Source: a virus (Duplodnaviria > Heunggongvirae > Uroviricota > Caudoviricetes). From it: 21,605 nucleotides of DNA. Below the pieces are notes generated by a model. That model was given only the letters and a program-made list of their open reading frames with translations, did no database searches and was not told the DNA's origin. This document shows positions 2,780-10,512 of this stretch, in pieces. Position 1 is the first letter of the stretch. Each line of letters opens with the position of its first letter. The position numbers and the translations under genes were made by a program. The DNA lies in IMG/VR virus record IMGVR_UViG_2529292836_000015, one strand, 5' to 3'.

Positions 2780-3163
2780 ATGCGTGATATTCAGATGGTT
2801 CTTGAGCGTTGGGGAGCGTGGGCGGCTAATAATCATGAAGATGTGACCTGGTCGTCCATTGCCGCCGGTTTTAAGGGATTAATTACTTCAAAAGTAAAAT
2901 CTCGCCCGCAATGTTGTGACGATGACGCGATGATCATTTGCGGGTGCATGGCCCGTCTGAAAAAGAACAACAGCGATTTGCACGATTTATTAGTAGATTA
3001 TTATGTAGTCGGTATGACATTCATGTCACTGGCAGGGAAGCATTGCTGCTCTGATGGTTATATCGGGAAAAGGTTACAGAAGGCTGAGGGTATAATTGAA
3101 GGGATGTTAATGGCATTAGATATCCGGTTAGAGATGGATATCGTTGTTAATAACTCTAATTAA
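2780..3163 (+). CDS. quuD: late-gene antiterminator Q (QuuD-like, 127 aa)
   Basis: ATG at 2780 with GGAGTAAG upstream. Translation [26 protein letters not shown]...[16 protein letters not shown]... matches recalled DLP12 QuuD. Position is right before the porin and lysis genes. Confidence 0.85.
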
Positions 3164-3196
3164 TATGCCAGTTGTTTACTAAAAGTTATTAAAAAT

Positions 3197-3220
3197 GGGG
3201 CGTTGCAACGCCCCCAAAAA
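3197..3220 (-). terminator. intrinsic terminator read on the minus strand (porin / 3'-UTR transcript)
   Basis: Perfect 18-bp palindrome GGGGCGTTGCAACGCCCC (3197..3214). On the minus strand it is followed by ATTTTTAAT. Confidence 0.45.
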
Positions 3221-3352
3221 TAAAGGGTAATATATAACAGAAGGTTTATATAGTTAGAAGCAAGGTTGTGCTCCTAAAGGAAGTGGCTTGAGGGAGCCAC
3301 TTATATGTTGGGGAGGCAAAGCCTCCCGCAACATATCTTTTTCGTAATCAGA
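3221..3352 (-). ncRNA. candidate structured 3'-UTR RNA of the porin gene (IpeX-like sRNA locus)
   Basis: Between the porin stop (3353) and the minus-strand terminator there are two stable hairpins: AGTGGCT-TGAGGG-AGCCACT (3282..3301) and ATATGTTG-GGGAGGC-AAA-GCCTCCC-GCAACATAT (3303..3336). From memory, the DLP12 sRNA IpeX maps to the nmpC 3' region. Confidence 0.3.
3303..3342 (+). terminator. intrinsic terminator-like hairpin on the + strand (candidate tR'-type site downstream of Q)
   Basis: GC-rich stem GGGAGGC/GCCTCCC with extended flanking pairing, followed on the + strand by ATATCTTTTTCG. Confidence 0.4.
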
Positions 3353-4435
3353 TTAGAACTGATACACCAGACCTACAGCGACGATGTCGTCGGTATCAAT
3401 ACCAGCTGTTTTGGTAAACTTACTATCGTCAATTAAGTTGATTTTGTAATCAACAAAAGTGGACATGTTTTTATTAAAGTAGTAAGTAGCACCGACATCG
3501 ACATACTTGACTAAGTCTCGGTCACCATGAACACCAAGGTCTTTACCTTTTGACTGAAGGTAAGCAACAGATGGTCGCAGACCGAAGTCAAACTGATATT
3601 GTGCTACTGCTTCAAAGTTTTGTGCTTTGTTTGCAATATGGTTATTACCAAAAACGGTCATATTCTGAGTTTCAGAATATGTGGTAGCCAGATAGATATT
3701 GTTCGCATCATATTTCAGGCCTGCAGCCCATACTTCCGCATTTTTGCCGGAGGCATTGAATTTGCTCTTACCATAGGCGACCTGACCGTCAGTGCGATCT
3801 GATTTAGCATAGGTTGCACCCACGCCGAATCCTTCATACTCATAAGTAGTGGAGAAACCGAAACCATCACCATTGGCTTCAGTTACGTCAGTGCGGTCAT
3901 TTTTACCCTGATACTGAGCAGCAAAGTTCAGGCCATCGACCAGACCAAAGAAGTCGTTGTTACGATAGGTTGCAACACCAGTGGTGCGACCAGTCATGAA
4001 CACATCTGTTTGGGTCCAGGTATCGCCACCGAATTCTGGCAGAACGTCAGTCCACGCACCGATGTCGTATGCTACACCGTAGTTACGGCCGTAATCGATT
4101 GAGCCGTAGTCACCGAATTTCAGGCCTGCAAATGCAAGACGGGTTTTGTCTTTGGAGGAACCTTGAGATTCAGCGCGGTTGCCTTTGAATTCATATTCCC
4201 ACTGACCGAAACCAGTCAGTTGATCGTTGATTTGGGTTTCACCTTTGAAGCCAAGACGGGCATAAGTAGTATCACCATCATCTGCATCATTAGAGGAGAA
4301 GTAGTGCTTAGCATTAACTTTCCCGTACAGATCCAGCTTGTTACTGTCTTTATTATAAATTTCAGCTGCCTGAGCAGACATCGCCATCAGTACTGATGCA
4401 GCTACAGCAGAAATTGCCACTGTTAATTTTTTCAT
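3353..4435 (-). CDS. nmpC: phage-encoded general porin, NmpC/Lc/OmpD type, intact (360 aa)
   Basis: Signal peptide [23 protein letters not shown], beta-barrel porin sequence ending in the typical ...VGLVYQF. Matches the recalled NmpC/OmpD family. Located between Q and the holin, as in DLP12 and PA-2. Confidence 0.9.
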
Positions 4436-4863
4436 CGTGAGCCCTTTTTTTTGAACTATTATTAAAAAATGATGTCACTGCGCGATAAATATTCATCTAA
4501 TCAATGTGATTATTTCAAGATGTAAGTTTTGGTTTCTCGTTTGATTTGTGAAGTAGATCTCTATTTTTATCTGAACTTTTTTCTATCGAATCCTATTCAT
4601 GGCTCTTGGCTGAATAAAAATAAATCTATTAGCCAATTTATATTAACGGCTATTATTTATAAGTGCTCTATAATTTGAAGGTTCAATTTAAACCAGCTAA
4701 AAATAACACTGGAAATTATTTGTTGGTTATTTGTTGAGATTTGCTTATGTATTTGTAGTGGTGTTTTCAATACTCGGTAGCATTCTCGCAAATATCATTT
4801 AGTGGTTTACGTACGTAAAAAATTGGTTATGCTGTTAAGAGTGGTTACTTCGTCACACAGCTT

Positions 4864-4896
4864 AAACCCGCCGTCGAGCGGGTTTTTCCATTTTTT
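4864..4896 (+). terminator. intrinsic terminator on the + strand about 130 nt upstream of the holin gene
   Basis: Stem AAACCCGC / GCGGGTTT with loop CGTCGA, followed by TTTTTCCATTTTTT. Confidence 0.5.
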
Positions 4897-7429: not shown

Positions 7430-7552
7430 TTAAAAAGATAGAGGCGAGCCGGTCAGGTAGAAATGAATCAGGCTCAAAGTGAAGCGGAAAAGGTCTGTGG
7501 CACAAGCTGATGCAGCCATAATTACAGCCTGATGATTTGTGGAATGAAACAT
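7430..7552 (-). CDS. candidate 40-aa small protein with a perfect Shine-Dalgarno
   Basis: Minus strand reads TAAGGAGGT-TCAAC-ATG, then MFHSTNHQAVIMAASACATDLFRFTLSLIHFYLTGSPLSF, stop at complement of 7430..7432. No family recognised. Confidence 0.3.
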   Translation of the reverse strand: MFHSTNHQAVIMAASACATDLFRFTLSLIHFYLTGSPLSF

Positions 7553-7632
7553 GTTGAACCTCCTTAATTGATGTTATTCGAGTGATGAAGGCATTCTGTC
7601 CTTCTATAGTGTCCAGTAAATCAAACAGGAAA

Positions 7633-7654
7633 CTTGTCCAACGTGTTGGACAAG
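7633..7654. promoter_or_regulatory. perfect 10-bp inverted repeat CTTGTCCAAC-GT-GTTGGACAAG (candidate operator or packaging-related protein-binding site)
   Basis: Read directly from the sequence. Lies in the bor-HNH intergenic region, about 120 bp upstream of the HNH ATG and about 80 bp upstream of the minus-strand mini-ORF. Confidence 0.4.
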
Positions 7655-7774
7655 CCTCTCCATTAGTGAGTTGTATTGATCACAACTCTACAAAGAATTC
7701 ATTACTGGGTAGATGAAAATAGTTTCACTATGAATGGAGGAGGCTATGTCGGTGGCTTCTTCATTGGAGTACAT

Positions 7775-8125
7775 ATGCCCCCACGAATCCCACGCGCCTG
7801 CCGTAAGCGTGGATGTGCAGGTACAACCACAGACAGTTCTGGTTACTGCGATAAACATCGTGGCGAAGGATGGGTACAGCATCAACGCGGACTGAGCCGC
7901 CACCAGCGTGGCTATGGCTCGAAATGGGATGCCATACGTGCGCGCATACTGAAGCGTGATAATCATCTGTGTCAGAACTGCCTGCGCAATGGGAGAGCCG
8001 TTGAAGCCAGAACTGTGGACCACATCATTCCGAAAGCTCATGGTGGCACGGATGCAGACAGTAACCTGCAGAGTCTGTGCTGGCCCTGTCATAAAGCAAA
8101 AACAGCGCGCGAACGCATCAATTGA
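7775..8125 (+). CDS. HNH endonuclease (terminase-associated)
   Basis: ATG at 7775 with GGAG SD. Cys pairs (CRKRGC...C..C) and the HNH core (DHIIPKAHGGTDADSNLQSLCWPCH). Immediately upstream of terS/terL, as usual for HK97-type packaging modules. Confidence 0.8.
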   Translation: MPPRIPRACRKRGCAGTTTDSSGYCDKHRGEGWVQHQRGLSRHQRGYGSKWDAIRARILKRDNHLCQNCLRNGRAVEARTVDHIIPKAHGGTDADSNLQSLCWPCHKAKTARERIN

Positions 8126-8272
8126 TAACAGTTCCCATCTGTAGGGGAGGGGCAGGTCAAATCTCTGCAACCCTGGCTGCTCAGTACCGCCGCCTGACCT
8201 TTCCTCGCATCGCCGCAGGTTCGAAAACTTTTTTTTGGAATGTGATTAAATGATTGATAGGTAAAACCGATT

Positions 8273-8755
8273 ATGTCAGGACCCCTGAAAACCCCGCCAC
8301 GCCTGCATTTGATACGAGGCAACCCCTCAAAGCGCCCCGTTAAAGACCCAAAAAAAACCGCTAAAAAGGATGAAAAATGTCTCCCTAAAATTCCGCAACA
8401 TTTAGGGTCGCAGGGGAAGTACTGGTTCAGGCGAATGGCGGAAGAACTGAATGCGGAAGGGATCATTTCTCAGCTTGATGCGCGTGCACTCGAGTTACTG
8501 GTGGAAGCCTACACCGAATACCGGCATCACTGCGAAACACTCGATGTTGAGGGGTATACCTACCGCACGGAAACGCAGAACGGTGATGTGCTGATTAAGG
8601 CACACCCGGCTGCTGCGATGAAAGCGGATGCCTGGAAGCGGATCCGGGCGATGCTTGCAGAATTTGGTATGTCACCGGCAAGCCGGGCGAAAGTAAATAC
8701 CGCCGGACCGGATGATGTTGATCCGCTGGCGGAGCTTTTAAAAGCGAGAGACTGA
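8273..8755 (+). CDS. terminase small subunit (P27 family)
   Basis: 160-aa ORF directly upstream of and overlapping the large terminase (TGATG). Basic N-terminus. Family call by recollection. Confidence 0.7.
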   Translation: MSGPLKTPPRLHLIRGNPSKRPVKDPKKTAKKDEKCLPKIPQHLGSQGKYWFRRMAEELNAEGIISQLDARALELLVEAYTEYRHHCETLDVEGYTYRTETQNGDVLIKAHPAAAMKADAWKRIRAMLAEFGMSPASRAKVNTAGPDDVDPLAELLKARD

Positions 8756-10512
8756 TGGCAAAAGTGGCTGACGGGATCCGCTACGCCGAACGTGTTGTTG
8801 CAGGAGAAATTGTCGCTGGCGAATTTGTCCGTCTGGCCTGTCAGCGTTTTCTTGATGATCTGAAGTACGGCGAAGAGCGGGGGATTTATTTTAGTGAACC
8901 CCGTGCGCAGCACATCCTTAATTTCTACAAATTTGTGCCCCATGTGAAAGGGGCGCTGGCAGGCCAGCCCATTGAACTGATGGACTGGCATGTATTTATC
9001 CTCATTAATATTTTTGGTTTTGTCATTCCGCTGGTGAATGAAGAGACCGGGGAAGTTGTCATGCGCAGCGATGGCAGCGGACGCCCGGTGATGGGGCGCC
9101 GGTTCCGGACGGCGTACAACGAAGTCGCCCGTAAAAACGCAAAATCAACCCTGTCATCGGGTATCGGTCTGTATATGACGGGGGCAGATGGTGAAGGTGG
9201 TGCTGAGGTGTATTCAGCCGCAACCACGCGTGATCAGGCCAGAATCGTGTTTGAAGACGCCAAAAATATGGTCAGAAAAGCCCGGTCGACACTCGGGCGG
9301 TTGTTTGACTTCAACAAGCTGGCGATTTACCAGGAGCAGAGCGCATCAAAATTTGAACCGCTTTCCTCGGATGCAAACAACCTGGACGGTCTGAACATCC
9401 ACTGCGCCATTATTGATGAGCTGCATGCTCATAAAACCCGTGACGTGTGGGACGTTCTGGAAACGGCAACCGGTGCCCGTCTGCAGTCTCTGTTATTTGG
9501 CATCACCACGGCTGGCTTTAACAAGGAAGGGATTTGCTACGAGCAGCGCGATTACGCCATTAAGGTATTGCGAGGCTATAACAGCGACGTGGAGGGCGCG
9601 GTAAAAGACGACTCCTACTTTGCGATCATTTACACGCTCGATGAGGGAGATGATCCGTTTGATGAAACGGTCTGGCAGAAAGCGAATCCTGGCCTGGGCA
9701 TCTGTAAACGCTGGGATGATCTGCGTCGTCTGGCGAAAAAAGCGAAGGAGCAGGTCTCTGCGCGGGGGAATTTTTTTACCAAACACATGAATGTGGGGGT
9801 CACTGCCGAATCTGCCTGGATGGATATGATTAAGTGGGAGAAGTGCGAATACATTGCTCCACAACATGAGCTGAAAACATATCCCATGTGGGTCGGCGTA
9901 GACCTTGCTCATAAGATTGATATCTGTGCGGCGGCAAAACTCTGGCGAACCGATAACGGACATGTTCATGCTGATTTTAAATTCTGGCTTCCGGAAGGAC
10001 GGCTGGAGCGATGCTCGCGGCAGCAGGCAGAACTTTACCGGAAGTGGGCGGAGATGGATAAGCTCATCCTGACGGATGGTGATGTTATCGATCATGCTCA
10101 GATAAAAAGTGACTTACTGGAATGGATTGGCGGTGAAAACCTCAGGGAACTGGGATTTGACCCGTGGAGCGCAATGCAGTTCAGCCTGGCACTGGCTGAA
10201 GAAGGGATACCGCTGGTGGAGGTTCCGCAGACGGTCCGCAATCTGTCAGAGGCCATGAAGGAAACGGAATCACTGGTTTATGCCGGGCGTTTCCATCACA
10301 GCAATCATCCGGTCATGAACTGGATGATGTCTAACGTTACGGTAAAACCGGACAAAAACGACAACATCTTCCCGAATAAATCCACGCCTGAAGCCAAAAT
10401 CGACGGCCCTGTTGCACTTTTTACGGCCATGAGCCGCTTTCTGGTAAATGGCGGGGGCGTGAATGACTTTCTGTCCACGCTTGATCCTGATGAGGACCTG
10501 TTAATTCTGTGA
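8755..10512 (+). CDS. terminase large subunit (ATPase/nuclease)
   Basis: 585-aa ORF with P-loop region RRFRTAYNEVARKNAKST, Walker B-like HCAIIDELH, and a C-terminal nuclease region. Sits between terS and portal. Confidence 0.85.
   Translation: MAKVADGIRYAERVVAGEIVAGEFVRLACQRFLDDLKYGEERGIYFSEPRAQHILNFYKFVPHVKGALAGQPIELMDWHVFILINIFGFVIPLVNEETGEVVMRSDGSGRPVMGRRFRTAYNEVARKNAKSTLSSGIGLYMTGADGEGGAEVYSAATTRDQARIVFEDAKNMVRKARSTLGRLFDFNKLAIYQEQSASKFEPLSSDANNLDGLNIHCAIIDELHAHKTRDVWDVLETATGARLQSLLFGITTAGFNKEGICYEQRDYAIKVLRGYNSDVEGAVKDDSYFAIIYTLDEGDDPFDETVWQKANPGLGICKRWDDLRRLAKKAKEQVSARGNFFTKHMNVGVTAESAWMDMIKWEKCEYIAPQHELKTYPMWVGVDLAHKIDICAAAKLWRTDNGHVHADFKFWLPEGRLERCSRQQAELYRKWAEMDKLILTDGDVIDHAQIKSDLLEWIGGENLRELGFDPWSAMQFSLALAEEGIPLVEVPQTVRNLSEAMKETESLVYAGRFHHSNHPVMNWMMSNVTVKPDKNDNIFPNKSTPEAKIDGPVALFTAMSRFLVNGGGVNDFLSTLDPDEDLLIL

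Follow-up and report, generated by a model that had tools for sequence, protein, structure and literature searches.

The quuD-porin locus

The stretch of DNA analysed here, 21,605 nucleotides in length and hereafter called the window, carries two genes facing each other. The quuD gene (2780-3163, plus strand), which is present in the RefSeq annotation of an identical prophage, codes for the Q antiterminator, and its product is 100% identical to K-12 QuuD. The gene converging on it from the minus strand (3353-4435) codes for a lambdoid prophage porin of the NmpC/Lc type. The spacer in between measures 189 bp (3164-3352), as good as the interval of about 190 bp given in the original prediction for this DNA. 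The prediction had also taken the porin to be intact, unlike that of K-12, and the gene indeed consists of an uninterrupted frame of 360 codons, whereas the K-12 porin is split by IS5. The 360-aa protein matches the porin OmpC subfamily of NCBIfam; it is 63% identical to K-12 OmpC and 91% identical to Lc, the porin of phage PA-2, from which it differs in surface loops. This porin gene is the parental gene of the 3' untranslated region (UTR) called ipeX, which directly follows this nmpC/lc-type lambdoid porin on its 3' side, is carried by the same strand, and falls between Q and the lysis genes.

The prophage in the window is identical to one residing in E. coli strain 203740, and has relatives in many other strains. 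According to the RefSeq annotation of the identical prophage, an IS66-family element (tnpA, tnpB, tnpC) follows a KilA-N gene at approximately 7528-10143 on the plus strand, the portal gene, which starts at approximately 14322, has an internal stop, and copies of IS1 and IS3 flank the window immediately on its upstream side. The prophage is likely to be defective. On the other side of the porin gene, a terminator-like hairpin with a T-rich tail (AAACCCGCCGTCGAGCGGGTTT; 4864-4895, plus strand) stands upstream of essD, the holin gene, at a distance of about 130 bp. The segment 4810-4887 is the sole part of the porin-holin spacer common to the porin-less phages SfII, SfIV and cdtI, and its counterpart in SfII is located upstream of the holin, after a gene in reverse orientation. 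The hairpin may correspond to the late-operon terminator tR'. The late promoter PR' was sought, and was not located.

Identity with ipeX

The interval 3189-3355, read on the minus strand, aligns end to end and without gaps with the 167-nt ipeX sequence of K-12, and 163 of 167 residues (97.6%) are identical. The K-12 reference is the reverse strand of NC_000913 574365-574531, 167 nt (4366-4532 of the K-12 locus L001), and its coordinates were taken from supplement file 1 of PMC8313858. Nucleotide 1 of the RNA coincides with the T (3355) of TAA, where translation of the porin ends, and the 3' end falls just past the U-run of the terminator. In K-12, the interval similarly opens with the stop codon of nmpC, at its first base. 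Similarity extends outside the element, as spacer and flanks match the quuD-nmpC region of the K-12 prophage DLP12 at 96% over 324 columns. In turn, K-12 and PA-2 (GenBank J02580) do not differ at any of 192 nt when the 3' UTR of lc is compared. The four substitutions found relative to K-12 ipeX map to the loop of hairpin 1 (one), to hairpin 3 (one, changing an A-U pair into G.U), and to the terminator loop (two); the latter render an 18-nt palindrome perfect. The position from stop codon to terminator, the strand, the length of 167 nt and the flanking Q gene are all as in K-12 and PA-2; the intact porin is shared with PA-2, while the K-12 porin is split.

On sequence grounds, the region is almost certainly the ipeX locus. 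The original prediction had spoken of an IpeX-like sRNA candidate, had placed IpeX in the nmpC 3' region, and had suggested alignment to K-12 ipeX as a check. The placement agrees with the start of the K-12 interval at the nmpC stop codon, the alignment matches base for base, and the candidate is best described as the ipeX orthologue itself. The feature is thus already known, and the analysis re-finds ipeX. Likewise, an intact porin and a 3' UTR-derived regulator coexisting in one transcript is not a new arrangement but the published PA-2 situation, given that K-12 ipeX and the region 3' of lc in PA-2 have the same sequence.

IpeX was described by Castillo-Keller, Vuong and Misra in 2006 (J Bacteriol 188:576) in K-12 DLP12 and phage PA-2; in that work, OmpC and OmpF reportedly fall, OmpA does not, and Hfq is needed only for the effect on ompF. 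Published accounts present IpeX as a 167-nt RNA of DLP12 and PA-2 repressing both OmpC and OmpF (PMC5069750, PMC12197685, PMC10690425, PMC3333887), made from the phage porin promoter within the porin transcript and then processed (PMC12197685, PMC10690425), and termed Hfq-independent (PMC8313858). Base-pairing of IpeX with ompC or ompF is flatly denied in reviews (PMC3617542, PMC10690425).

Two CRP-binding sites are annotated upstream of lc in the PA-2 record J02580, and map to 4559-4579 and 4855-4875 of the window. According to a supplement table of PMC8313858, the level of K-12 ipeX RNA is flagged as lower in crp mutants, and on fructose it is also lower, by a log2 fold change of -4.9, when cra is mutated. 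There are hints that ipeX levels are under catabolite control, but in K-12 the IS5 element parts ipeX from the porin promoter.

Automated annotation has missed ipeX. The RNA appears to have no Rfam family; a search of the whole window against Rfam gave no match at the gathering score, and matches obtained in the region 3000-3600 at E values up to 10 were terminator-like and at chance level. Similarly, RefSeq/PGAP annotation has no ipeX feature in K-12 MG1655 (574340-574528) or in the other genomes listed, and the spacer is either devoid of features or covered by the neighbouring porin only. A coding role was considered for an ORF of 26 codons that opens at nt 22 of IpeX, and rejected, as the frame hits a stop at codon 6 in E. 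albertii, and is frameshifted in E. coli AR_0077.

Folding and termination

The minus strand of the spacer is predicted to fold at -65.8 kcal/mol, while dinucleotide shuffles fold at -36.9 +/- 3.8 kcal/mol (z = -7.7), and none of 200 shuffles did as well. Shuffles are outdone by the plus strand as well, but less exceptionally (z = -4.4). The difference between strands, together with a G.U pair in hairpin 3 possible only on the minus strand, is as expected if the functional RNA is that of the minus strand.

Moving from the porin stop codon toward Q, the minus-strand RNA is predicted to form hairpin 1 (3303-3336; 8 + 7 bp separated by a one-base bulge, -22.2 kcal/mol), hairpin 2 (3281-3302; 8 bp, loop CCCUCA, -10.4 kcal/mol), hairpin 3 (3254-3277; 9 bp including one G.U, -9.5 kcal/mol), and hairpin 4 (3231-3252; 7 A-U pairs, -1.3 kcal/mol). 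The latter is marginal and effectively open, and its loop and 3' arm are part of the predicted seed discussed below. A U-rich stretch, UUUAUUUUU, precedes the predicted intrinsic terminator of the porin/IpeX transcript (3191-3214, minus strand). This consists of a stem-loop (3197-3214; GGGGCGUUGCAACGCCCC, -12.5 kcal/mol) followed by AUUUUUAAU; the 7-bp G+C stem GGGGCGU/ACGCCCC encloses a 4-nt loop, and is followed by A (3196) and UUUUU (3195-3191).

The original prediction had anticipated a strongly structured minus strand, to be checked by folding, and the figures above bear it out. The three strong hairpins that it had placed in the spacer were recovered, with one marginal hairpin in addition. 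Its alternative description of the minus strand, two stem-loops followed by a terminator, was right as to the terminator and wrong as to the count, as three strong hairpins and a marginal one come before it. The perfect 18-bp palindrome does exist in this allele, to which it is peculiar, the K-12 and PA-2 loop being CUCA, but pairing through its centre is impossible, and what forms is a stem of 7 bp capped by 4 unpaired nt.

A promoter specific to IpeX was not predicted. On the plus strand, hairpin 1 (-22.2 kcal/mol on this strand as well) is followed by CUUUUUCG, and the resulting unit (3303-3344), which sits just before the point where transcripts leaving Q would enter the porin gene in antisense orientation, is a candidate terminator for such transcripts. 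A scan for terminator patterns did not flag hairpin 1 on the plus strand, probably because of the bulge in the stem.

Distribution and allelic variation

The ipeX element is found in about 2,500 of 5,426 complete E. coli genomes (about 46%). Genomes hosting ipeX have a median of one copy and a maximum of three, and 2937 of 2939 places are chromosomal. Every instance examined adjoins a prophage porin or quuD. Phage records with the element number 36, those of PA-2 and 434 among them, and a more sensitive search of the phage records returned the same 36. When the 80 porin loci most similar to this one were taken from species-representative genomes, the ipeX UTR was limited to E. coli and E. albertii, and was absent from the loci obtained for Salmonella, Citrobacter, Enterobacter, Klebsiella and Serratia. 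In E. albertii, homology stops right after the U-run of the terminator, so that porin and UTR behave as one module.

Alleles are 88-100% identical to each other. The terminator stem is unchanged in 13 of 13 distinct alleles, and the loop varies. The sole compensatory change in the data set is found in hairpin 1, where a C-G pair is replaced by U-A in E. albertii. The top two pairs of hairpin 2 are lost in the commonest IMG/VR allele, the G.U pair of hairpin 3 is A-U in K-12, and variant substitutions in hairpin 4 fall in the 5' arm and break pairs. Altogether, one compensatory pair was counted among 46, along with some one-sided changes and several broken pairs, and 195 of 500 shuffles did as well. 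Comparative support for the fold is thin, as the 13 distinct alleles are too alike, and support for the predicted IpeX structure is thermodynamic.

Some loci depart from the common organization. The most divergent E. coli allele (89%) is that of strain AR_0077 (NZ_CP026755), in which porin and ipeX adjoin ybcM rather than quuD; here an inserted A turns the bulge of hairpin 1 into a U-A pair, yielding a perfect 16-bp stem. In the IMG/VR record IMGVR_UViG_2563366891_000011 the same porin protein is encoded, and ipeX is replaced from about 16 nt past the stop codon by unrelated DNA, which opens with a simple terminator, CCUCCGGCAUAGCCGGAGG plus UUUUU; this is a natural porin module without ipeX. 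Insertions of IS5-family elements recur at the locus, and have been found in K-12, in phage 434B and in E. coli JB2 (NZ_CP182203). In K-12 and 434B, IS5 is inserted in the porin gene 58 bp before the stop (after codon 346 in the 434B annotation). In JB2 an ISKpn26 element takes the place of the porin, and the match is reduced to the 64 nt of the spacer nearest to quuD.

Complementarity to porin mRNAs

A segment of IpeX located past hairpin 3 and ahead of the terminator (nt 105-139; 3217-3251, minus strand) is predicted, from computation only, to be antisense to the -32 to -2 region of the ompC mRNA. The core of the match, IpeX nt 110-124 (3232-3246; AACCUUCUGUUAUAU), can form 15 contiguous pairs with ompC -21 to -7 (AUAUAACAGAGGGUU), 14 of which are Watson-Crick and one G.U, and covers the ompC Shine-Dalgarno sequence. 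Past a 5-nt bulge, the duplex runs on through CCUUUAUUU to ompC -31 to -23. The longest stretch of perfect Watson-Crick pairing is 10 nt. The extended duplex comprises 27 bp, and has a predicted energy of -26.7 kcal/mol, to be compared with -22.8 kcal/mol for the validated MicC-ompC duplex computed alike.

Folding full-length IpeX with mRNA leaders produced one giant artificial duplex, and was uninformative; windowed, accessibility-corrected scores were used in its place. The background was made of windows from 200 kb of K-12 sequence, plus 87 annotated translation-initiation regions. A run of at least 15 pairs with ompC was found in 14 of 2000 dinucleotide shuffles. The accessibility-corrected helix score was -20.2 for ompC and -16.6 for the best of 1800 K-12 background windows of 111 nt, and the cost of opening the IpeX segment was estimated at 3.4 kcal/mol. 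The energy of -26.7 kcal/mol was reached by none of 7400 background windows, a figure to be read bearing in mind that the seed segment had been picked after the match to ompC was seen. When the whole window was searched on both strands for helices with the ompC translation-initiation region, the best one was contributed by IpeX itself (3232-3246, minus strand; -23.6 versus -17.9 for the next). In full folds of the two RNAs, the gain was -17.3 for ompC, -6 to -13.6 for non-cognate partners, and -26.4 for MicC-ompC.

Of 5371 E. coli genomes, 5365 have the same sequence at the ompC site; on the IpeX side, identity over a 36-nt segment is 99% or more in 2291 records, and about 2505 genomes hold at least 80% of it. 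Conservation of the seed does not significantly exceed that of the other IpeX positions, with 7 variable positions counted in its 35 nt and 36 in the 167 nt of the RNA.

Next to the core, UAUUACCCUU is complementary to ompF -14 to -5. The predicted IpeX-ompF duplex (-18.8 kcal/mol) was equalled by 33 of 7400 background windows (top 0.5%), and its score beats all of the 87 annotated translation-initiation regions sampled. The run of 10 pairs is not unusual alone, as 981 of 2000 shuffles did as well, and the gain in the full two-RNA fold (-12.3) is within noise. With the same IpeX segment, ompA ranks as average (-11.4 kcal/mol; 1368 of 7400 windows as good), and so does the phage's own porin mRNA (-10.4 kcal/mol; 1963 of 7400 as good). 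The predicted ranking ompC > ompF > ompA is consistent with the reported phenotype, in which OmpC and OmpF are down and OmpA is not.

Mode of action and alternative explanations

The data can be arranged in a simple scheme. IpeX would be, according to the literature, the tail of the porin transcript, synthesized from the porin promoter and accumulating as an RNA of about 167 nt, and would act post-transcriptionally to lower OmpC and OmpF, so that the lysogen may swap host porins for the phage porin. The receptor of PA-2 is OmpC, and a decrease in OmpC might block superinfection as well. The weakly structured nt 105-139 would pair with the -32 to -2 region of the ompC mRNA, cover the Shine-Dalgarno sequence, overlap the site used by MicC, and plausibly hinder ribosome binding. 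The neighbouring UAUUACCCUU may pair, more weakly, with the ompF Shine-Dalgarno region. The U-rich stretch and the terminator may work as an Hfq-binding module, and the 5' hairpins may shield the processed RNA. According to this scheme, IpeX would be an ordinary antisense RNA, in which a composite seed, partly MicC-like and partly MicF-like, occludes the ribosome-binding sites of ompC (27 bp) and ompF (10-19 bp), and spares the phage porin mRNA. We give this reading, which is derived from modelled duplexes, somewhat better than even chances. The statement as a whole that the region is the ipeX of a lambdoid prophage of the DLP12/PA-2 type, lying in the 3' UTR of an intact NmpC/Lc-type porin gene and pairing with ompC, seems likely.

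The main alternative is that IpeX represses porins without pairing to ompC or ompF, by titrating a protein or in an indirect way, and that the complementarity is a relic or due to chance. Absence of pairing is stated in the literature (PMC3617542, PMC10690425, PMC12197685), and would be in line with the reported independence of Hfq (PMC8313858), with a seed that shows no significant excess of conservation over the remaining RNA, and with the weak ompF signal in the full two-RNA fold. Yet, the match to ompC outdoes 7400 of 7400 and 1800 of 1800 background windows, is the best in the whole window, and falls exactly on the Shine-Dalgarno sequence, overlapping the MicC site; moreover, with perfect Watson-Crick pairing limited to 10 nt, it may have been missed by word-based searches. 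On balance, we consider this alternative rather unlikely, and lean toward base-pairing, contrary to the reviews, as the probable mechanism of IpeX, though by models and with modest confidence. Hairpins could also function purely in cis, in porin termination and protection of the mRNA 3' end, with no trans-acting RNA made in this strain. A clear intrinsic terminator and stable hairpins right after the stop codon would suit such a role, and the natural module in which the same porin protein is served by a simple terminator implies that the porin can do without ipeX. But one terminator suffices, and nonetheless 140 nt of upstream sequence are conserved in about 2,500 genomes; in addition, trans activity has been published (PMC12197685, PMC5069750) for an RNA of 97.6% identical sequence, which makes a function restricted to cis very improbable.

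A role of the spacer mainly on the plus strand, where hairpin 1 followed by CUUUUU would stop Q transcripts before they run antisense into the porin gene, is compatible with the presence of IpeX. The stability of hairpin 1, the CUUUUUCG tail and a plus-strand fold better than that of shuffles speak for it. The fold of the minus strand is, however, more exceptional, the G.U pair of hairpin 3 works on that strand only, the pattern scan called no plus-strand terminator at hairpin 1, and early lambdoid transcripts are usually antiterminated; as the main role of the spacer, plus-strand termination appears improbable. Finally, ipeX has been listed as REP-containing by RepRanger (PMC12306157), and might be taken for a repeated extragenic palindrome. 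REPs occur in hundreds of dispersed copies, whereas ipeX occupies one to three places per genome, in all examined instances beside a prophage porin or quuD, and copy number rules out that the region is a REP element.

The identification of ipeX is a correct annotation and not new biology. The annotation is nonetheless useful, because ipeX is missing both from Rfam and from RefSeq in the genomes inspected, K-12 MG1655 included, and yet nearly half of complete E. coli genomes carry it. The predicted IpeX-ompC complementarity is one new lead on a known RNA. IpeX is cited as an odd porin regulator which does not base-pair, and complementarity to the ompC ribosome-binding site offers a simple, testable mechanism; the no-pairing claim of the reviews thereby becomes directly testable. 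If pairing is true, the view, repeated by reviews since 2006, of IpeX as a regulator working in the absence of complementarity would be contradicted, and one prophage transcript would both encode a new porin and silence the host porins.

Relationship to known porin regulators

The ompC site predicted for IpeX (-32 to -2) has positions in common with the predicted MicC duplex, which extends to ompC -14; unlike MicC, IpeX would also cover the ompC Shine-Dalgarno sequence. The 5' end of MicC has GUUAUAU and CCUUUAUU in common with IpeX, and the two blocks are 5 nt apart in IpeX and 1 nt apart in MicC. Both genes adjoin a porin gene, but MicC, a repressor of ompC, is a chromosomal, Hfq-dependent, free-standing gene, whereas IpeX is a 3' UTR. 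Collinear homology to MicC was looked for by local alignment, which returned an 11-nt identity and the split seed motifs only, and the Rfam gathering score was not reached. The 11-nt identity, CCAACAUAUAA, corresponds to IpeX nt 44-54 (3302-3312, minus strand), in the 3' arm of hairpin 1, and to nt 63-73 in the body of MicC. The pieces shared by IpeX and MicC stand in permuted order.

The resemblance to MicF, the ompF repressor, is confined to one motif, UUAUAUAUUACC in IpeX and UUAUUUAUUACC at MicF nt 16-27, which agree at 11 of 12 positions. Both would face the same ompF segment, GGUAAUA; the MicF-ompF duplex is the stronger of the two (-27.4 versus -18.8 kcal/mol), and the RNAs are otherwise dissimilar.

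CpxQ and SroC are 3' UTR-derived sRNAs released by mRNA processing. As in these RNAs, the terminator of IpeX is shared with the parental mRNA, and IpeX is reportedly processed from a longer transcript. In contrast to CpxQ and SroC, the parent of IpeX is an accessory ("moron") gene of a phage, and its targets are the host paralogues of that very gene.
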